Of a DNA stretch of 64,000 nucleotides, positions 7,191 to 57,276 are shown piece by piece; the first letter of the stretch is position 1; every line of letters starts with the position of its first letter. The position numbers and the translations under genes were made by a program. The stretch spans positions 75,516,001-75,580,000 of the forward strand of contig NC_091479.1 in the NCBI RefSeq assembly GCF_036971445.1, in the 5' to 3' direction. Source of the stretch: Narcine bancroftii (lineage: Eukaryota). The notes beneath the pieces are model-generated. The model worked only from the letters and a program-made list of their open reading frames with translations, searched no databases and had not been told where the DNA came from.

Positions 7191-8504
7191 TGCTCTACAT
7201 TGCCCTCTATCACCACAACACCAGCCCTCTCTGCCTATTTATGCTGGTAGTGTGGCTCCTGGGGAAGGCAAAAACCAAATGGAAAAAAAAACCCTGCAGC
7301 CAATTACAGGGAAAAGACTTTGGAAAATTCCTCCCCGACTCCTTGGTGGCAATCGAGCAAAGCTCCAGGAGATCACTGGAAATAGTGATACACTACCAGC
7401 AATACTATTTCTAATGTTTTATAACTATTATGCTCTACCACAAAATTAGACGAGGTGTCGCTGGCCCGGACTTCACTCTGCAGCTACTGCTGCTCCGCTG
7501 GGCCCACAAGGCCTGGGCTCTGTGCTCTCTTCTCACGCAGACCGCTTGACTCCACCTCGTCCGCTGCCCACCTCCGCTGTGCTGCCGCTCACGCCTGTTG
7601 CTTCCACTCACCTCCGCTGCAGCTGCCATCTCTGCTGCCCACCCCTGCTGCGGCCGCAGCTCTCCTCACATTCAAGCCTTTTCTCCTATTATCCATATTG
7701 TTCAAAATATCGCTTGCTCAGCATTAGAACTTGATGCTTTAATGAAGCTGTAAGGCTAAAGTTGCAACCAGGATTAATATTTTCATGAAATGGTTCCAGA
7801 GTGAAATAGATTACAGATTTAGATATTGAAAGAGGGCTTCATTGGCCGTAGGACACTATCATAAAGAGTAATATATAAAAGCCAAGAATTCTGTATAACT
7901 GGAGAAATTGTGGTGAGAATGTAAATACAGCAATGATACTTGGTAATTGAATCACAAGCTATTTTATTTCCAGAAGATGCCTTACATTTCAAACATGAAG
8001 CAATTTGCTTTTGTAGAAAGAATCAGAATACCCATTACTTCAACAAACCCTTCAAAAGGCTTTAATATTCTTGTTGAGGCAGATTATCTGGCACTGACTT
8101 CGATTATTCAACGAACACAGCCAGGCCCTATCACAGTGGACACACTGAGATTATACACTATTTGCAAGAATTATGGCAATCTTGATGCATTAATGACCTG
8201 TGCTTCAGATAGAATATACTTAGGGAATGAAAAATGACATTTCTTTATCCCCCTTCCTTTCCCGTAAGTGTCCCTGTGGCCAGTGGGCGACCTCTTATCC
8301 ATTTCTTCCCCAAATGTAGTACAAAATTCAGTTCATAAACTGGTAATTTTCACTCATCTGGTACTCATGCCAGGCACCACGTTACATTTGCCACATACAC
8401 ACCACCCTGGGTAAAAGTTGACAAATATCTTGCTTTGTGGAAACTCTCAATTCTTTTGACCATATATTCATTAAGTATTCTGCTCCTTCAGAGGAGACCA
8501 TGAT

Positions 8505-8695
8505 TGTTATGCTTGGTTTTTTTTCCCCCAAGAAGAATGACTTTGCGTGGGTTTTAACATTTAACCAACATTATTTTCTTTGAGCTGCTTCAATCGACTT
8601 CCAATGACCGCCCCTGTCATATATCACTTCCGGGTTCCAGCCAACTGTGTGCACTGCATGCTGGGAAATGCAGTTCTTATATGCATAATAACACA
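8505..8695 (-). repeat. 3' LTR (complete, ~190 bp)
   Basis: On the minus strand, follows the PPT directly, starts TGTGTTATT and ends CATAACA. Shares tgagctgcttcaa, cccctgtcat and gcactgcatgctgggaaatg with the other LTR. Confidence 0.9.
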
Positions 8696-8772
8696 TCTTT
8701 CCCCTTAAAAAATAAAAACACAAACACAATACGATGCCCACTAACAAAAGTACCTACATTCCATGGTCATTC

Positions 8773-9461
8773 ACTTTCTATCACTTGCATCTGATGACTT
8801 CTGCCTTCACTAAGTTATTCAAGTTCATTCAAGGCATCCGCAAGATCCGCAGAAATCTGTGACGAGGTTCTTGTTTATCTGCAATTCACGAACAGTCACC
8901 AGTAGCTGTTGATTTTGTTGTTGTAGTTCCTCAACATTACAGTAGGTCACCGGATGTTGAGAAATTACTTCAGAGTAACTGCTTATGTCAGAAGAGCTAA
9001 GTTCATCTTCATGAAAAATAGGATTTCCTCGTGCATCTTCTAGTTCAAACAAAAACACCCTGTTCTGCTGTGAAAGATCTGACACTTGCATTTTCTATCA
9101 CTGATTCTCCCTGTGGAGTAATGAAGCATGCTTATTCACCTCATCAGTGCATTTTTGTAAGTGGCAAATTTCCTTCATGCCTTCTAATTTAGCTGAGAGA
9201 TTTACCACAGATTCTCATGCTTGCGCTTCAGAAGTGGAGCTTCCATCTTTGCTTCTTTCACAGTTTCATCTAAATATTTATTCACTCTCTTATTTTACTG
9301 TTTTGCCAATAGCAATTAATTTTGGGCTTATACATCTCTGTGAACCTCATTCCAGGTTTCACAATCTTGGCCACAGCTGCTGCAGTGGGCGACCATAGCT
9401 GCCAGTTCCTCAGTGTGGTGGTTCCTTTAAGCTTTGTAGTTGAAAGAAGATGGTTTGCATC
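8773..9461 (-). pseudogene. TPR: Processed fragment of nucleoporin TPR (coiled-coil region) captured inside the LTR element
   Basis: Frameshifted translation [170 protein letters not shown] is colinear with recalled TPR ([21 protein letters not shown]; [33 protein letters not shown]). No introns; several stops. Confidence 0.92.
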
Positions 9462-9462
9462 T

Positions 9463-9528
9463 GTTAAGTGTAAAACCAATGTAAAATAATTCTTCTTGAA
9501 AGAACAAACATAACATGGTGTCAGACGT
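9463..9528 (+). promoter_or_regulatory. Inverted LTR end (putative R-U5, 9463-9515) and primer-binding site (9516-9528)
   Basis: gttaagtgtaaaaccaatgtaaaataattcttcttg...CATAACA is the reverse complement of about 8505-8565. It is followed by TGGTGTCAGAcGT, complementary to a tRNA-Leu-type 3' end. Confidence 0.8.
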
Positions 9529-9564
9529 GTCCGAGTGAGTAAGAGATGATAATAGTTCATAAGC

Positions 9565-11982
9565 ATGGATAAGTTAAGCCTCCAACACCGATACAGTTTA
9601 CCAGCAATCTAACCAATAATTGGAAGCGATTCATCATTTATTTTGAAGCTGGTGGAATAGGAGAGACTGATGGAAAATGTCTACATTTCTGCACATGATG
9701 GGTGAAGGTGCATGGACATCTATAATAGTTTTCAAATTGATGAGACAGCTTTCACGTTGGACACTGATGGCAAAATGTGAGTATTTTGTTCCAAGTTAAA
9801 ACGTCATGTTTGAGAGATTCACATTTTACTCCTGTGACCAGAAACAAGGTATGATCTTTGACCAATACTTAGCCAAGCTTCACACACAGACTCCTGTGAA
9901 TTTGGAGATTTGAAAAATTCACTCATTAAAGACCGAATAGTTTGCAGAATCCCATATAATGGATTTCGAGAAGACTGTTGCGTGAAAAAGATTTGACTCT
10001 GCAAACGTCTGTGAATATGAGTAGGGCAGCAGAGAATACATGAGCAGAAGCTAAGGAGCTGCTCAGGATAGACACAACAGTTAAGGAGCTGCACAGAATA
10101 GACATATAATGCATGTGATGAAAACAGATGAGCACCAGGAGTTTCCCAAAGTAAAGTGGTAAGCTCAAATGCAGCAGGTGCGGAGGTAGAGATATTCTAA
10201 AGATGTGTCCACATTATGGAAAGTTCTGGTATAAATGTAGGAAGAAGAAGCATTTTGCAAGGTGCTGCAAAGTTGAGGATACCAAGAGAAAGGTATACAC
10301 AGTGGAAGAAGAAATAGAGGAATTCTTTGTGCATTTGCTACAGACTGCTGCAAGCAAAACAGAATATATTGTTCCAGTGACTGTGAATAAGACAGTATTC
10401 CATTTAAGATCGACACCAGAGCCCAGGTAAATTTGTTGTCTATGGATGATTACAAAACCGTCACCACATAGAGCAAGATTTATCCTGTGAAATTAAAAGT
10501 GACAGACTACACTGGAGAGAATGCTCCAATAAAAGCGGGCTGTATGATGACCTTCAAACACAAAGGGCGGCATCTAAAGTCATAGCTATTGATTGTAGAA
10601 AGGAGAGTACAGCCAATATTAGGTCTGCGTGCATGTGAAGAGCTCGACCTGGTGAAAAGAGTTTTCACAGTGGCTTCACAGACTGAAGGCAAACACACAA
10701 CACTCATGGAAGAGTACCAGATGTCTTTGAGGGACTTGGATGTTTACTCAAGATCCACATAGATGAGATAGTGGCTTCTGTTGTCCATGGATGCAGGAAA
10801 GTACCATTTCCACTTAGAGACAAACCTAAACAAGAACTAGCATGCGTGGAACGGATGAAAGTCATCCAGAAAATTGAAGAACCTACAGATCGAATCAGCT
10901 CACTGGTCATCGTGCATAAGAAAAATGGAGCATTGCATATATGTCTCAATAAAGATATAAAGAAATAGCATTTTAAATTGCCCACACAGGAGGAAATAAT
11001 GTCCTAGTTTGCAGGTGCCAAGTGGTTTAGCAAGCACGATGCATCATTGCGATTTTGGCAAATGAAGCTCAATGAGGAAAGTTTGAAACTATGCACTTCC
11101 AATATTCCACAAGGAAGATACCGCTTTCTTCGGCTACCATATGGGATCTTGTGCACACCAGAAATCTATCTTAAAACCATCCACGTGATCTTTGAAAGTG
11201 TATCTGGAGTTGAGACCATGATGGATGATGTCATTGTATGGGGGTCCACCAAGGATGAACATGGTACATGATGAAGACAAGTGCTTGACATGACGTGGAA
11301 TGACAATTTGAAATTAAATAAAGAGAAATGTGAGTTTGGCATAAAGACCCTGGCCTTCATAGGAGATGAGGGAGAAAAGCCTGATCCAAGAAAGACATCA
11401 GCCATTGAGAATTTTGCAAGGCCCCAAAACAAAGAGTAGGTGAGACGTTTCTTGGTCATGGTGATTTACCTGGCTAAGTTCATCCCTCTTTGGCCGACTG
11501 TGTCAGCACCACTTAGATCACTCCTTGAGCAGAAAAATGAATGGATATGGCCGCATGAGCAAGAAGAATGTTTCCAGGCTCTCAAAAAGACCCTCACAGA
11601 GAAGGCTGTACTAAAATTTTCTGATCTGGATAGACGCACCAGGATCTTGGCTGATGCATCCTGACATGGCCTTGGAACAGTACTCCTGCAGCAACATGAA
11701 GATACATGGCAACCTGTGGCCTATGTATAAAGGGTTTTAACAAGTGCAAAAGTCAAATATGCACAGATAGAGAAAGAGCTTCTTTCCAGCATGTGAAAGC
11801 TTCCATCACTATAGTTTTGGATAAGCTTTGGAAGTGGAGACCGATCAATTTTGTCCAAACCACTGAATGACGGTCCCTTGAGAGTGCAGCGCATGTTGAT
11901 AAGGCTGCAGTAATACGATGTGAAAATGTTCTACATTGCCAGGAAAATGCATGTTTTCAGCTGATACACTGTCTCTAGCAGT
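9565..11982 (+). pseudogene. Degenerate Gypsy gag-protease-RT-RNase H (no integrase)
   Basis: Gag start [20 protein letters not shown]; zinc knuckle CPHYGKFWYKCRKKKHFARCC (~10200-10270); protease FKIDTRAQVNLL (~10403); RT YRFLRLPYGI and MMDDVIVWG (11118-11245); RNase H ILADAS, YAQIEKELL, PGK..ADTLS. Many stops and frameshifts. Confidence 0.92.
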
Positions 11983-12247
11983 TGTATAACTGCCCTGGAG
12001 AAGCGATACCTTAATGTACAGAATCAACCTCATTACATGTCATGAATGACAAACTGGAAAATGAGTTGGCAAATAAGGATGTCTTCTTACGCCAGCTAGA
12101 AGACAAAGATAGACAGTTACAGGAACGTCTGGAACTAGCTGAAGAGAAAATGCAGCAAACAATGAAATGAGCAGAAATTTTGCCAGAAGGAGAAGCTGAA
12201 CTTGCCCAGCGAATTGCATCTCTGGCAATGGGAAGAAGGGCATGGCA
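11983..12247 (+). pseudogene. Processed fragment of liprin-alpha (PPFIA, closest to recalled PPFIA2) captured inside the LTR element
   Basis: [86 protein letters not shown] versus recalled liprin-alpha [89 protein letters not shown]. Confidence 0.9.
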
Positions 12248-12405
12248 TTTACATGGGTTTAACACTTAACCGACTTTATATTCCTTGAGCTGCTTCAACT
12301 GACTTCCAACAACCAACCCCTGTCATGTGTCACTTCTGGTTTCCACCCAACCGTGCGCACTGCATGCTGGGAAATGTAATTCTTTTGTACGCGCATAATA
12401 ACACA
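12248..12405 (-). repeat. 5' LTR, lacking its distal (U5) end
   Basis: Aligns to about 8543-8695 (roughly 80-85% identity by eye) and stops after ...aaacccatgtaaa. Confidence 0.85.
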
Positions 12406-13194
12406 ATGACAAGTAGATTTAACAATTAGACCCCAGATGCACAGTGGTTTACAAATTGCTGTTAAAAGTGACTTGAACCTGCAATGCTTTTAATGCACTG
12501 GTAATGGCTATAATACTGCACAATTGATCAGCATCATTCCACTCAGGCCAGTTTTAATGTTGCCCGGTGGGCATGTCAGCCATGAGTAAAGGACATGCTG
12601 AGGTCGCTCAAAATGCCTTTGTAAAAGCTAATTTATTTTTCTAATTCAAGTCAGTTTATCAATCCAGACTCATGCTTTAGCTTTCCTCCTTGTTGCTACA
12701 TTAAGTAGGTCTTGAAACAATTCACATTTGTTTCTACATTTTCATGGAATTTTTATTTTGGGCAGAAATGGACTGAAGATAATTCCTGAATTTTGACTGG
12801 TTTGAATTTCTTGCCCTTTGTCTTGACCTCTCAATCTGAATGAATTTTTGAAACTCTACAATATTGCTACATCAGAAGTAATATCTGCACGAAGAATTTG
12901 AATTCAAATTCATCCATGGAGTTTGCATTGGTCCATTTTCAATCCCATTTTATTTTTATGTGTAATTAAGTGCATCCGAACATTTGGATTTATCTGTATT
13001 TTCTGGTTTGTCCTTTCCCATTTGGTTGCTCTTCGAAGGGTGGTAACATTGGCGTATCTAGCTATTTGGCATTCAGAATGCAGCTGATTGGTATAAATTA
13101 AAACATCAGCTGTTTAAACACTGAAAACATGGTCAAAATTTTGTTTGTCCTCCAAAATGATTGCAGCAAGTGTTTCATTGTTTATTCTTCAGCA

Positions 13195-14599: not shown

Positions 14600-15990
14600 G
14601 TGCAAATATTGCTAAATTAACTGCAAAATAAGATAAAGTGAGCAAGTTTCTGTGGTTCATTTTCCATTCAGAAATCTGATGGCAGAGGGGAAGAAGCTGC
14701 TTTTGAATCATTGGGTGTTTGTCTTCAGACTCCTGTACCTCATTCCTGATGGTAGCAGTGTGAAGAGGGCATGGCCTGGGTAGTGAGGATCCTTGAGGAT
14801 AGAAGCTGCTTTTGTAAAATACTGCCGCTTCTTGATGCTCTTGATGGAGTGAAGACTGGTGTTCATGATGGCGCTGGCCGAGTTCACAACTACGTAGTCT
14901 TTCCTGTCCTGTGCATTGGCATCTCCATGCTAGACGATGTAACCGGTCAGAATGTTTTTCAAATTTTTGTAGAAATTTGCAAGAATCTTTGGTGACATAC
15001 TGAATCTCCTCACGAAGTATAGCCACTGGCGAACCTTCTTCATGATTGCATCAACTTGGAGACTCCAGGATAGATCTTCAGAAATATTTGAAATTCTTAA
15101 CCTTTTTCACTGTTGACTCCTCGATGAGGACTGGTTTGTGTTCTCCTGATTTTATTCCCCCCTCCTAAAGTTCCATAGTTGAGTGCAAGGTTATTGTAGT
15201 GACTCCACTCAACTAGCTGATCTATCTCCTTGCTGTCCACACTCTCATTGCCGTCTGTGATTCTGCTTATGACGTGGTGTCATCGGCAACTTTGTAGGTA
15301 GTATTTGAATTGTACCTTGCCACACAGTCATGGGTGTAGAGTGAATAGAGTAGTGGGCTAAGCACGCATCCTTGAGGTGAGCCTGTGTTGATTGTCAGTG
15401 AGGAGGAGACGTTTTTTCCGATTAGGCACTTCGATAATGTAGTCAAGGATCCAGTTTCAAAGGGTGTGCAGAGGGCCATGTTTTGGAGCTTGTTGTCCAG
15501 TAATGAGGATGTGACGGTGTTGAATTCAATGCTGTATTCAATGAAATGTAGCGTGATGTACATGTTCCTGTTGTCTAGGGCTGAGTGGAGAGCCAGTGAG
15601 ATTGCATCTGCTATGGAATAATTGTGGCAGTCAGTAAATTGCAGTGGGTACAGATATTTACTTGGGTACAACCTCTCAAAGCATTTCATCGTAGTAGATG
15701 TGAGTGCTAGTAGGCGATAATCATGGAAGTAGCTCAATCTGCTCTTCTTGGACACCGGTATGATCGATGCATTTTTTGAAGCAGGTCCATAAGGAGTAAA
15801 GAGAGATTGAAAATATCCATGTACACTCCAGTTAGTTGGTTGGCATAGAAATTCAGTACGCTGTCAGGTACGCCATCAGGGTCTGATGCCTCTCTTGAAG
15901 GATATTCTGATATTGGCCTCAGTGACAGATACCATAGGGTCGTCATCTTCTGCAGAGATTCTCATTGGTACCTGTTTTCCTTTTCAAAAG
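14600..15990 (-). mobile_element. Rex1/Babar-type LINE, RT region
   Basis: DYRLLALTSTTMKCFERL...INTGSPQGCVLSPLLYSLYTHDCVARYNSNTTYKVADDTT. Confidence 0.9.
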
Positions 15991-18790: not shown

Positions 18791-18918
18791 ATTGCAGTCT
18801 CTTGTGCCTTTCCCATTAGTTCTGGAACCAGACTGTTTTGCTTGGTGACTGTTGGGATCTGCTGAGGGGTTCGCAAATTCTGGATAGCATAAAAAGACAT
18901 GGGAGAGTGTTTTACCTT

Positions 18919-19629
18919 TAGCGCCTTTGGAAGACTACACAAAAGAGTCTGGAAAAACAACCAACTGAAAAACCTCACAAAGATAAGCGTATACAGAGCC
19001 GTTGTCATACCCACACTCCTGTTCGGCTCCGAATCATGGGTCCTCTACCGGCACCACCTACGGCTCCTAGAACGCTTCCACCAGCGTTGTCTCCGCTCCA
19101 TCCTCAACATCCATTGGAGCGCTTTCATCCCTAACGTCGAAGTACTCGAGATGGCAGAGGTCGACAGCATCGAGTCCACGCTGCTGAAGATCCAGCTGCG
19201 CTGGATGGGTCACGTCTCCAGAATGGAGGACCATCGCCTTCCCAAGATCGTGTTATATGGCGAGCTCTCCACTGGCCACCGTGACAGAGGTGCACCAAAG
19301 AAAAGGTACAAGGACTGCCTAAAGAAATCTCTTGGTGCCTGCCACATTGACCACCGCCAGTGGGCTGATATCGCCTCAAACCGTACATCTTGGCGCCTCA
19401 CAGTTCGGCGGGCAGCAACCTCCTTTGAAGAAGACCGCAGAGCCCACCTCACTGACAAAAGACAAAGGAGGAAAAACCCAACCCCAACCCACCAATTTTC
19501 CCCTGCAACCGCTGCAACCTTGTCTGCCTATCCCGCATCAGACTTGTCAGCCACAAACGAGCCTGCAGCTGACGTGGACTTTTTACCCCCTCCATAAATC
19601 TTCGTCCGCGAAGCCAAGCCAAAGAAGAA
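18919..19629 (+). mobile_element. RTE-clade LINE, 5'-truncated, little diverged
   Basis: Open frame KISVYRAVVIPTLLFGSESW...QLRWMGHVSRMEDHRLPKIVLYGELSTGHRDRGAPKKRYKD; tail gcgaagccaagccaaagaagaa. Confidence 0.92.
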
Positions 19630-41058: not shown

Positions 41059-42217
41059 CCCTTTTACACTGCCCGTGAAAGATGGTAATTACTCACCTTT
41101 TTACTGTTTCAACGGTGTGAAGGCGACCAAGATGGAATGGGGGGGTAATTTTCATCCCAGTACTTGCCCACCAAGGTAGGTAGTATCAGATTGACTCCAC
41201 ATTGGCTCCATTGTAGAAGGTTTACCCGTCTTCCCCAGACGCCAATACTATAATGCTGCAGGTTCACCTCCTTTTGCACTGGGAGGCTGGGTCTCTATGC
41301 AAAAAGTCGCACTGAACCACCTTTTCTTGGTTCAGTGTGAATGCTCCAATCTGACCCAACCCAATTTCAAACACGGATTGTTGACATGCCAATTTAGTGG
41401 GGTCTTCAACCAGCTTATCTATCTCAGCTGCACCATTTCATCAGATGCAAGGATCGACAATGAGATAGACAACAGACTCGCCAAGGCAAATAGCGCCTTT
41501 GGAAGACTACACAAAAGAGTCTGGAAAAACAACCAACTGAAAAACCTCACAAAGATCAGCGTATACAGAGCCGTTGTCATACCCACACTCCTGTTCGGCT
41601 CTGAATCATGGGTCATCTACCGGCATCACCTACGGCTCCTAGAACGCTTCCACCAGCGTTGTCTCCGCTCCATCCTCAACATCCATTGGAGCGCTTTCAT
41701 CCCTAACGTCGAAGTACTCGAGATGGCAGAGGTCGACAGCATCGAGTCCACGCTGCTGAAGATCCAGCTGCGCTGGGTGGGTCACGTCTCCAGAATGGAG
41801 GACCATCGCCTTCCCAAGATCGTGTTATATGGCGAGCTCTCCACTGGCCACCGTGACAGAGGTGCACCAAAGAAAAGGTACAAGGACTGCCTAAAGAAAT
41901 CTCTTGGTGCCTGCCACATTGACCACCGCCAGTGGGCTGATATCGCCTCAAACCGTGCATCTTGGTGCCTCACAGTTTGGCGGGCAGCAACCTCCTTTGA
42001 AGAAGACCGCAGAGCCCACCTCACTGACAAAAGGCAAAGGAGGAAAAACCCAACACCCAACCCCAACCAACCATTTTTCCCCTGCAGCCGCTGCAACCGT
42101 GTCTGCCTGTCCCGCATCGGACTTGTCAGCCACAAATGAGCCTGCAGCTGACGTGGACTTTTACCCCCTCCTTAAATCTTCGTCCGCGAAGCCAAGCCAA
42201 AGAAGTGTAAAAAGGGG
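41059..42217. mobile_element. Putative MITE interrupted by an RTE copy
   Basis: Left terminus cccttttacact (41059-41070); its reverse complement agtgtaaaaagggg lies at 42204-42217, right after the RTE tail. Confidence 0.5.
41406..42205 (+). mobile_element. RTE-clade LINE, 5'-truncated, little diverged
   Basis: Open frame YLSCTISSDARIDNEIDNRLAKANSAFGRL...CSRCNRVCLSRIGLVSHK; same tail as the other copies. Confidence 0.93.
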
Positions 42218-51670: not shown

Positions 51671-52029
51671 ACATTCCACAGCACTCGGAGAATTCAGGTG
51701 TTGTCCTCAATATACTTTGTGGTATTGATGAGTTTGAGGAGTTTTAGTTAAACACCTTGTAACATTGATGATTAGTGTAGCATGATCTGTTAATAGATTC
51801 TGTGGGACTGATGGTCATTGAGTGTGTTAGCAATGTGTTCTGCACCATTATTGAGCAGAGAAATGTGGATTATTTGCACTGATGGATAATAATTTGTTTT
51901 GGAGCAATGATGAAACAAACATCGATTACCAAAGCAACAGCATATTATGGAGAGTGGAATTGCCAGAATGCCTAAGCATTGAGCTACTGATGGTAAATGC
52001 ATTCTATAAAATTTTTTGGTAATATGTGC

Positions 52030-52480
52030 AGACCAGACAGTTGGTGTGTTGTGCAGCTCCCATCAGCGTGTGGTCCGGACAGTCAGTGTATTGTGCAGTG
52101 CCCACCAGCGTGTGGTCCAGGCAGTCGGTGTGTTGTGCAGCTCCCATCAGCGTGTGGTCCGGACAGTCAATGTATTGTGCAGTGCCCACCAGCGTGTGTT
52201 CCAGGCAGTCGGTGTATTGTACAGTCCCCATCAGCAGTGTGGTCCAGACAGGCGGTGTGTTGTGCAGCGCCCATCAGCAGTGTGGTCCAGGCGGTCGGTA
52301 TGTTGTGCAGTGCGGTCCAGACAGTCGGTGTATTGTACAGTCCCCATCAGCAATGTGGTCCAGGCAGTTGGTGTGTTGTGCAGCTCCCATCAGTGTGTGG
52401 TCCAGACAGTCAGTGTATTGTGCAGTGCCCACCAGCGTGTGGTCCAGGCAGTCAGTGTATTGTACAGTCCCCATCAGCAA
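52030..52480. repeat. 42-43-bp minisatellite with alternating unit variants, about 10-11 copies
   Basis: Units gtgtgttgtgcagctcccatcagcgtgtggtccggacagtca and gtgtattgtgcagtgcccaccagcgtgtggtccaggcagtcg start at 52044, 52086, 52128 and 52170. Confidence 0.95.
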
Positions 52481-52824
52481 TCAGTTGCATTGATGATGTG
52501 CAGAAAGTTTATGCTTTCTGTGACATTGAAGAATGTTGGACTGTGAATGTGTTGAGCCATTAGGTGTGAATTATCATTGTATTTTTCAGAATTGAAGACC
52601 AATGAGATGCAGGGACAGTAACATGCATTTGTAGAATTGACGACTTGTAACCTGCAGAAGAGTTGTGCATTCTCGAACACCTCTAGGGCAGTCGATCCCT
52701 TTGATGACCAGAGGTGAAACTTTTTGGGCAAATGGAAGAGCAAATGTCTTTAACCACTGCATGTTCTCACACAATTTGTGGAGGGGAAATTACAGTATTT
52801 GGGCTTAGGGACATTGAACAATAT

Positions 52825-54499: not shown

Positions 54500-57276
54500 G
54501 CGATTTGACCTGTCATTCAGTACAACGTTCCTGCTCATTCCAAGTGTCCTAGATTTATTTTCACCATGCACTTATCCTCTTATTGCAAGTGTATTTAGTG
54601 TGTTACTGAAATGCTTCCTCATCTTGAAAGGGAATCAGAAATTACATTATCCTTGCCTTTAATAAGAGCTATCATTAAATCATATTCTTGCAAAATTAAA
54701 CTCCAATTTAACAATCATTTATTTTTATTTTTCATTTTACTTAAAAGAACTAAAGGATTATGATCAGTGTAAACAACAATCGGTCCCCAAGCATTGCATA
54801 TGTAAACATTGAAATATTGCAAAGCCCAGACAAGGGACAATACTTTTTCAATAGTAGAATAATTCTTTTGATGTTGATTGAATTTTGTAGATATTTACTG
54901 GATGGTCAATATCATCACAATTATTCTTTTGTAATCGCACAGTTCCTGATGCTTCATTGCGAGCATCTACTGCTAAATTAAATGTGTTTTCAAAGTCAGA
55001 TGACTTGAGCAAAGGTTTTTGAAAATAAAATGGCTTTCAATTTGTCAAATGCTTCCTGAAAAATGGTTGCCCAAATAAACTTTTCACCCTTTTTCAAAAG
55101 GTTAGTCAAAGGAAGGACAGTATCAGCAAACTTTTTATAGAACTTTCTATAATACCCTACCATTGCTAAACATCTAACAGCTTTCTTACCTGTGGGAATG
55201 GGAAACTCAGGAATCGTCTGACCTTTAGCTTGAAAAGGTGCCACTTTTCCTTGACCAACAACATAACCAAGATATGTAACAATAGCAAGGAAAAATATGC
55301 CTTTAGCTAAACTAACCGTAAAGTTTGCTTCCGAAAGTTTGTTGAACATTTTCCCTAATGCAAACATATGTGCTTCCCAGGTGTCATCTTCAGTAACCAA
55401 ATGGTTAATATAAGCATCGTATGCTCTAAATCTTGAATCACAGAATTTTAATTTCTTCAACTAACACCAACTCTTTCAGACTATTAGAGTCACCATTTAT
55501 CTTTTTTGACGTGCACCATCTAAGTCAAAGCACATAGCTTTTTCATATGCAAAAATCTGTATATGAATTTCTCAAATTCCTGAATTTTTGTCTCTAAGTG
55601 TCTGGAACCAATTCATAAGCTTTAAGCACAGCTTGTTTTACAGTGTCTAATTATAAGGGCTGGCTGAGTATTCCCTTTGATTACACCCTGTAACATGAGG
55701 GACCAATGGTTTCTTGACCATTTCAAACTCTCAGCAACTTTCTCAAAATGCTGAAAATATTTATCAGTGTCAGCCTCAATAAATGGAGGAACTAACTTCA
55801 CCTCTCTACTAGTCATAAAACTCTCATGAGGACCATGAGATGAATCCCTCCTTGTCTCCTATTGCTTTCAAAATCCTTTGGTTTATCAGCTTTGTTTTTC
55901 TAGCTCTATCAAAAACAATCTTTGCCTTTCGACTTTCTCTTTGTTTTTCAACTTCTTTCTTTGTTTCTCTGCTTCACTCACCTCAGATCTACTTTTTTTC
56001 ATACCCTATCTCCAGTGCACATAGCTCAAGTTTCTTTTGTTCTCTCTCAAACTCAAATCTACGTTTTTCTAACTTAAACTGTTGCAACTGCTGCTCAAGG
56101 GATTTACTCTCAGGAAATTGTTTTTAACTCCTCCTCTCCAAAAATCCCCTCTTTTGCATAGTGGTCAACTATAACTTTCTGAATTACTTTTTTTTTCATC
56201 TTCTGTTTTACCTACACAAGTTTCAACTTTTTGAGCAATATTCAACAACTCATTCAAATCTGCAAAGATTGGCAATTCCAAAAACGTATCGATATCCATT
56301 GCTGTTTCTTTTCCACACAGACAAGCCTTTTAGTTGGCTTTTTAACAGTCAAATTGATTAAATTTCTTTAATCAATCAAATTTAAAATTAATCAATCAAT
56401 AAGCTCCAATTTTGGTTCAATCCCATTCTGGCCCCCAATTTCTTACAACCTAGCAGCAATAGAAATTGACCAAGATTATGTTATCTTCAAAACAATCATT
56501 TTTATTAATAACTATGTTTTATTTAAACTTAAATCTAAACTTAACCCCACTATATGCAAATGTATATGTGTATGTGGTAGATCCCAAACCCTACAGTTCA
56601 GGCACGATTCTGAAAAGTCAATTTCAAAGTTCTCAAAATGCACAAATTTGTGTAGAGTTGCTTTCAGATAAATGTTCCTTCATATGAATGATTTGTTTTT
56701 AACAATTCCCCACTCTTGCATGGAGGTTACAGAACTTGTGATTGCCACAATGATTTCATAAACCCAGCCAAGGGTTTTAGATGAAATGACCATTAAAATG
56801 GCCACAGTAGGACTGCTCTCTCAACGAGAAAAGACCGCCATCTTTTCCAAAGCCACTTTGATTCTGTGTTCCTCGCTTGACAAGGAGAACATGATAGCAG
56901 ACTTTTCTCATTACTGACTTCAGGTGAAACTTATTCGTCATGTTAAGATGCTTTCTTAAAGTGTCATAATTACTTGATATCACTACTCGCTCTGTTTCCA
57001 AAAGCAAATGGTCTCTGGCTTGCTACATAGGCCAACAAACAAATGGCTGTTTGCTTACACAGTTGCCTTTCTGAGCAAACATTCATTGACTTCAGCATTT
57101 CTATGGAACAATCAACACAAGTTTATTGCTCTGTTCACAGCTGGACCGAGCAGACACAGCATCTCTGGTGATGTTCTCTGTGCATAAGTGTCTTAGTGTG
57201 TGTTTGCCTGTTTCCAACCCACAAGTTACCTCTCTAAAATATAATACATTATAACTTAAAGATTAAATCTGTAACT
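54500..57276 (-). mobile_element. Second Gypsy LTR element, heavily deleted (LTR ~57276-56441, PBS, gag, RT/RNase H remnants)
   Basis: On the minus strand ...gtaaga is followed by aaTTGGGGGCcagaatGGGAT, a tRNA-Pro-like PBS at ~56437-56420. Gag REVKLVPPFIEADTDKYFQHFEKVAESLKW; RT AYINHLV..TYLGYVVGQG..MVGYYRKF..PLTNLLKK; RNase H end IKGKDNV near 54660. Confidence 0.8.

Follow-up and report, generated by a model that had tools for sequence, protein, structure and literature searches.

A single decayed insertion at positions 8505–12405 of the window, the 64,000-nt stretch of Narcine bancroftii DNA that was analysed (contig NC_091479.1, 75,516,001–75,580,000), belongs to a Gypsy family with spliced pieces of two host genes, PPFIA2 (liprin-alpha-2) and TPR. 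It is quite probable that the family arose by microhomology-guided template switches of reverse transcriptase (RT) and was spread in trans by integrase-bearing sisters, the cargo having no function beyond hitch-hiking. A sequence-only reading of this DNA had recognized a spliced liprin-alpha mRNA in an LTR retrotransposon, which was borne out by the loss of two introns and the match to PPFIA2; a second captured gene (TPR), two LTRs, a target-site duplication, and an internal inversion are now added to it. The RNase H/liprin junction highlighted in that reading is not the founding capture event, and is a dead one-off of this copy. The insertion and its flanks have the following features.

8500–8504, no strand: target-site duplication, left copy ATGAT, 4/5 bases equal to the right copy
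8505–8695, minus strand: 3′ LTR, 191 bp, TG...CA
8696–8775, minus strand: 3′ untranslated stretch of the element, common to integrase-bearing copies
about 8776–9460, minus strand: captured spliced TPR mRNA, decayed (Pfam TPR, E 3e-17)
9460–9515, plus strand: inverted 3′ portion of the 5′ LTR, 44/53 to the 3′ LTR
9516–9533, plus strand: primer-binding site, starts with TGG
9540–10713, plus strand: gag and protease, decayed
10714–11984, plus strand: RT and RNase H, decayed (Pfam RVT_1, E 6e-7; RT_RNaseH_2, E 6e-6)
11984–11986, plus strand: private RNase H/liprin junction, out of frame
11986–12247, plus strand: captured spliced PPFIA2 mRNA, parts of three exons, host spliced positions 34–301, ending at the inversion break
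12248–12405, minus strand: 5′ portion of the 5′ LTR, matching the 3′ LTR at 130/153
12406–12410, no strand: target-site duplication, right copy ATGAC

The flanking ATGAT and ATGAC and the split 5′ LTR identify one insertion in which 9460–12247 is inverted. About 270 nt of cargo are lost at the inversion break, and about 24 bp of 9460–9515 recur at the end of the other portion of the 5′ LTR, a duplication at the other inversion end. The target duplication of 5 bp is perfect in copy L017 and has 4/5 bases in the window and in copy L107. LTRs with TG...CA ends, a primer site, and a short target duplication are present, as in Ty3/Gypsy LTR retrotransposons. The domain order is also that of Ty3/Gypsy, with RT followed by RNase H in the window (Pfam fragments at 11008–11661) and integrase domains after RNase H in sister copies. 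The primer-binding site is presumably of the tRNA-Leu type, and a Mag-like clade is our guess for the element. The stretch that supports a single gag-pol frame is window 10155–10430, stop-free from the zinc knuckle to the first protease strand; none of the natural copies was stop-free all the way from the zinc knuckle to the protease active site. A tandem unit of about 30 nt (KELHRIDTTV-like) lies in gag at window 10052–10110, and its copy number differs between elements and organisms. Terminal inverted repeats were rejected, as the repeats are direct in unrearranged copies, and so was Pack-TIR or other DNA-level capture, as in addition the introns are gone. The insertion is also no L1-type processed pseudogene, because the cargo ends abut element sequence instead of the mRNA piece being surrounded by poly(A) and a target duplication.

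The liprin piece at 11986–12247 is 89% identical (239/268) to positions 34–301 of the spliced host PPFIA2, the exons of which were mapped at AG/GT borders. Pfam LIP-1 was matched at 12045–12167 (E 8e-12). Liprin-alpha-2 gave the best protein matches (89%), and the three paralogous host loci were 71–82% identical to the piece. Two exon junctions are crossed, near 12095/12096 and 12230/12231, and the host introns of 2.26 and 3.18 kb are missing. The second crossed junction is ALTK/AEERHG, the boundary that the sequence-only reading had named as ALxK/AEERHG. The host PPFIA2 gene is on the same contig 16 Mb away, and its parent exons are mostly 93–100% identical to the N. bancroftii liprin-alpha-2 protein. 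Capture of liprin from a spliced PPFIA2 mRNA is real; the piece is neither part of a single exon with flanking intron nor an ordinary pol linker, which had been named as the observations that would speak against it. The TPR piece of the window corresponds to host spliced positions 275 to about 1029, covers six exons with five junctions crossed, and is equivalent to about aa 355–605 of the primate protein. Its host parent gene is on contig C11.

The non-autonomous family has the structure LTR-gag-protease-PPFIA2 (five exons)-TPR (six exons)-LTR. The cargo stands in place of RT, RNase H, and integrase together, and no RT or integrase was found in the PPFIA2-TPR family. In the 3.3-Gb genome, 223 candidates were recognized by the liprin piece, and the best 40 of the 223, which were scored, were 83–88% identical. 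In 23 of 29 liprin-selected copies the protease ends at 10712–10714 directly before liprin, RT-RNase H was found in 0/29, and two LTRs separated by about 2.7 kb are visible in several. The first two PPFIA2 exon junctions are crossed in 29/29 other liprin copies, and the stretch 10714–11984 is missing in all other liprin-bearing copies examined. A TPR-selected sample, which partly overlaps the liprin-selected one, gave 249 candidates; 29 were fetched, 26 of them with liprin and none (0/29) with RT-RNase H.

The family PPFIA2 piece extends over host positions 22–564 and the TPR piece over 262–1029, crossing four and five exon junctions, respectively. Junction 1, from the protease/RT boundary to PPFIA2, has 8 nt of microhomology (window 10706–10713 is the 8-nt word where the family switches to liprin), and its junction word ATGGAAGA is present in both parents and encodes MEE in both. 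Junction 2, from PPFIA2 to TPR, has 6 nt (AAGGAA), is in frame, and spans a PPFIA2 exon junction; as the microhomology straddles that exon junction, the template was mRNA. Junction 3, from TPR to the 3′ untranslated stretch, has 6 nt (GTGGAA) immediately behind the pol stop; two codons past this junction, the cargo frame is closed by a stop. Both coding junctions are in frame, and the founder could therefore encode a Gag-PR-liprin-TPR protein. The original frame, which the sequence-only reading had held to be beyond settling from this decayed copy, can be read at the protease/RT boundary of the family, where the junction is in frame. This junction is read through in one frame in 19/29 copies, and copies L028 (173 aa, the longest run among the 29) and L017 (165 aa) are stop-free across it with no editing.

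The exact 19-nt family junction was found in 25 places on 10 contigs, with 0 for the control; all 25 sites run on into PPFIA2 and 23 reach TPR. Since the exact word is in 5/29 and 4/29 of the sampled copies, 145–180 copies are calculated, in agreement with the 223 and 249 candidates, and the family size is estimated at 150–250 copies. The 10712/10713-to-11986 joint was found in contigs of organism C and a 10713-to-12020 joint in those of organisms A, B, and C, so the family, which is also in contigs of two other organisms, is not confined to N. bancroftii. The tree is star-like, with tips of 0.095, 1/28 forks starred, and few supported, and LTR pairs are 72–87% identical; the tree and the LTR divergence fit one old burst. 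No report of a PPFIA2-TPR Gypsy family came up in the literature searched.

Integrase-bearing sisters were represented by 349 candidates with Pfam rve and Integrase_H2C2 domains. The pol-type junction word has 42 occurrences, and those elements carry integrase. In three further elements, L107:2400–4680 (contig C17), L122 (C17), and L123 (C15), the gag end is followed by a longer spliced TPR piece with its start near host 80–99, in frame where readable. TPR extends to about aa 880–897 in L122 and L123, L123 is without the TPR core (aa 450–605), and the 3′ junction common to L107 and L123 differs from that of the family. These TPR-only sisters may be the TPR donor, or they may have captured TPR independently. 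In another rearranged pair, L119:2834–6134, an integrase-type and a liprin-type element lie head-on on opposite strands.

The switch from pol to liprin on the same strand with no spacer was confirmed as described: other RNase H copies are similar up to 11984, and ITALEKRY starts from 11986. Integrase is missing at this point, also as previously read, and sister copies run on from the same base into the linker and integrase. The RNase H frame reads ...DTLSLAVV and then a stop at 11987–11989, and ITALEKRY is in a different frame. The two parents share about 2 nt (GA) in different codon phases, and one base comes from neither parent. Other copies with this junction, a search for which had been suggested, did not appear. 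With a 121-nt junction query, the window alone covered both halves among the best 40 of 146 candidates; a degenerate junction pattern gave one match, the window; and 0/29 other RNase H copies ran into liprin. As top candidates were scored and the pattern was strict, a few decayed copies may be missed. A short-read contig of run X1, which may be from the assembled sample, spans the junction at a depth of 6.2 against 6.4 in the flank, that is, as single-copy; it has six differing letters and then departs from the window. Zero cover of the flank 12408–12750 in organisms B and C at 94% is uninformative on orthology. A Pol-liprin coiled-coil fusion, proposed earlier as a possible former product, is not supported, the junction being out of frame and found in this copy only. 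Compared with the common family junction, the window junction is short of 12 nt of liprin (host PPFIA2 22–33, including four bases absent from pol and from the window junction), and the window form therefore cannot be the source of the family junction. RT template switching, as proposed in the sequence-only reading, thus stands as the likeliest route of liprin capture, but the RNase H junction was not the capture point.

In the most probable course, host mRNAs would have been co-packaged into the particle and used as templates for minus-strand synthesis, TPR possibly by way of an earlier gag-TPR sister element. The chimera, retaining LTRs, primer site, and gag, would then have been mobilized in trans in one old burst. 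We infer that the window copy is a later switch between family RNA and helper RNA, in which RT would have left the family RNA 12 nt inside liprin and gone on copying from the end of RNase H in the helper RNA. The inversion of 9460–12247, either in reverse transcription or after insertion, would have split the 5′ LTR and removed the cargo of about 270 nt. Membership of the window copy in the family was judged from its TPR-to-UTR 3′ junction, which is that of the family, rather than from a 19-nt TPR deletion. At gag-protease diagnostic columns the window has the liprin-family state at 6/7, as do 3–5 of 13 helper copies. Against this course, a gag-protease tree of 31 rows (28 of 58 other fetched copies were left out for cover below 85%) neither places the window nor groups it with the helpers, and DNA repair could have made the private junction, given its microhomology of about 2 nt.

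Such a repair after insertion, with the RT-RNase H stretch of another copy patched into a family element along with the inversion, is unlikely. The almost complete lack of microhomology, the duplication and cargo loss at the inversion ends, and the head-on helper/family join in L119 are in its favour; yet the parts at the junction are in element order and orientation, as in a switch between co-packaged RNAs, and RT-RNase H is continuous with the preceding gag-protease with no seam seen. If the template-switch course holds, the junction is a trace of recombination between a cargo-carrying element and its helper.

Selection on the cargo was looked for in the differences among copies. Compared with the present host genes, PPFIA2 has 9 family-wide differences, 8 of them silent, and TPR has 18, of which 17 are silent. 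As a TPR-only copy shares 17/18 of the TPR differences and the residue change in TPR is at a site variable among outgroups, most of these differences are likely host changes. A conserved PPFIA2 leucine is changed to serine in 12/20 copies. The burst likely came soon after capture, which leaves little for selection tests, and these have little power on a star tree. The N/S ratio is 3.42 (649/190) in singletons and 2.33 (21/9) in variants of at least four copies (p 0.38), with no signal of selection overall or within TPR aa 450–605. Two shared liprin deletions keep the frame, one of 99 nt (13 copies flagged) and one of about 84 nt (6 clear, 8 flagged). A frameshifting 19-nt TPR deletion near aa 566 is in the window and in 7/22 others, thus in 8/23 scored copies. 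This deletion was rejected as a subfamily marker, since it is flanked by 8-nt direct repeats and its distribution does not follow the liprin deletion types; it may be recurrent. Retention of the TPR core is 0.82 against 0.68–0.70 elsewhere (20 copies), a difference confounded by the picking of copies with both ends. Taken as a series, the in-frame joins are suggestive rather than decisive, and matches of 6–8 nt among these sequences give an in-frame rate of 0.33–0.67 by chance.

Liprin coiled coils dimerize, and by an adaptive reading of the cargo, which we consider quite unlikely, the liprin coiled coil of a Gag-protease-liprin-TPR polyprotein would have dimerized the pore-binding domain of TPR. 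[quoted passage not shown] The family TPR piece is equivalent to primate aa 351–605, with L458 and M489 falling in place, and by our own arithmetic, with TPR taken to be about 2,360 aa long, a random piece of equal length would hold aa 450–605 in about 5% of cases. This piece coincides, in a match spotted post hoc, with the NPC-binding domain of TPR reported at aa 357–606, the core of which was later narrowed to 450–606 (bioRxiv 10.64898/2026.10.08.757499, from the part available). According to the same source, homodimerizing segments of the domain bind pores; the published fragments carried an added nuclear import signal, which weakens the parallel. A scaffold-binding region was placed at aa 390–660 in another preprint (bioRxiv 10.64898/2026.02.20.707084, available part). 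Knockdown of TPR was reported to give more export of unspliced Gag/Pol-CTE RNA (PMC3258255, available part), and basket nucleoporins to affect Ty1 and Tf1 (PMC5909446, available part), both of which favour the adaptive reading. Its further support, and the main points against pure hitch-hiking, are that the TPR piece coincides with a mapped domain and that all coding junctions of the family, the gag-TPR join in three sisters with other junctions, and the two shared liprin deletions keep the frame. Against it are the in-frame rates expected by chance, N/S flat overall and inside the core, the deletion that breaks the frame in 8/23 copies, the sister L123 without the core, and the confounded core retention. 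An open fused frame under purifying selection, as in a Bs1-like functional retrogene, was not found, N/S being near neutral. If the domain match is not chance, a retrotransposon would here have equipped itself with a nucleoporin domain of its host, and if the adaptive reading is true, a Pol-less element would be among the most successful forms of its family.

A first capture of liprin at the RNase H end, replacing integrase only and followed by a later RT-RNase H deletion that gave the shorter family, is very improbable, because deletion from the window form cannot yield PPFIA2 22–33 of the common junction and that form is single-copy and out of frame, even if its junction is real and sharp and its gag-protease has liprin-family states at 6/7 columns.

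Hitch-hiking cargo caught by template switching resembles the gag-oncogene arrangement of acutely transforming retroviruses, which are helper-dependent and in which host coding sequence stands in place of pol as an in-frame fusion with gag. The element described here differs from these as a germline Gypsy element with no env seen and no sign of selection on the cargo. LTR-mediated retroposition described by Tan 2016 (PMC5131818, as far as available) is similar in the partial spliced mRNA that replaces internal ORFs between LTRs, in microsimilarity at switch points (median of 6 bp there; 8, 6, and 6 here), and in two-parent chimeras, common in-frame products, and non-autonomous secondary retroposition. 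Secondary spread there stands for more than one insertion site, with 18 sites for nine retrocopies, whereas one two-gene chimera is at an estimated 150–250 copies here, and this chimera, unlike those, has given rise to deletion subtypes and to a recombinant with its helper. The species that the available part of that study names include no cartilaginous fishes. Maize Bs1 (PMC5131818, PMC13317346, both in part) is likewise an LTR element with several host mRNA pieces, switch points common to all copies, and a chimeric ORF. It has 1–5 copies and is reported to be transcribed and translated, whereas every copy examined in the present family is decayed; unlike in Bs1, the two cargo pieces of the family are coiled coils in native frame. 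On the available parts of these sources, the capture mechanism, the multi-parent chimeras, and the secondary spread are already known, and the present family greatly exceeds those cases in copy number. As the family shows, the products of LTR-mediated exon shuffling can multiply into the hundreds in a vertebrate, well past the handful of copies in the cases known from these sources.

Retrocopies of cartilaginous fishes (bioRxiv 10.64898/2026.06.26.734816, main text) are similarly numerous, species-specific, mostly ORF-less, and with odd top parent genes (MIPOL1, SUDS3, SDF2L1, SLU7, and ZNF276), and their counts were linked there to non-LTR elements. PPFIA2, TPR, and Narcine are not in that main text, and its supplements may list them. 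LTR-borne cargo may explain a part of the odd shark and ray retrocopy lists credited to LINEs, and the family produces false liprin and TPR hits in annotation.

Elsewhere in the window, the longest stop-free frame has 314 codons (41195–42136, plus strand). Repetitive stop-free frames are at 51997–52560 in three plus frames, one of them Cys/Pro-rich, with a tandem-repeat-like appearance. Segments 54999–55460 (minus), 15270–15863 (minus), and 18893–19594 (plus) were taken by eye to be fragments of the RT of another LTR element and of LINE RTs.
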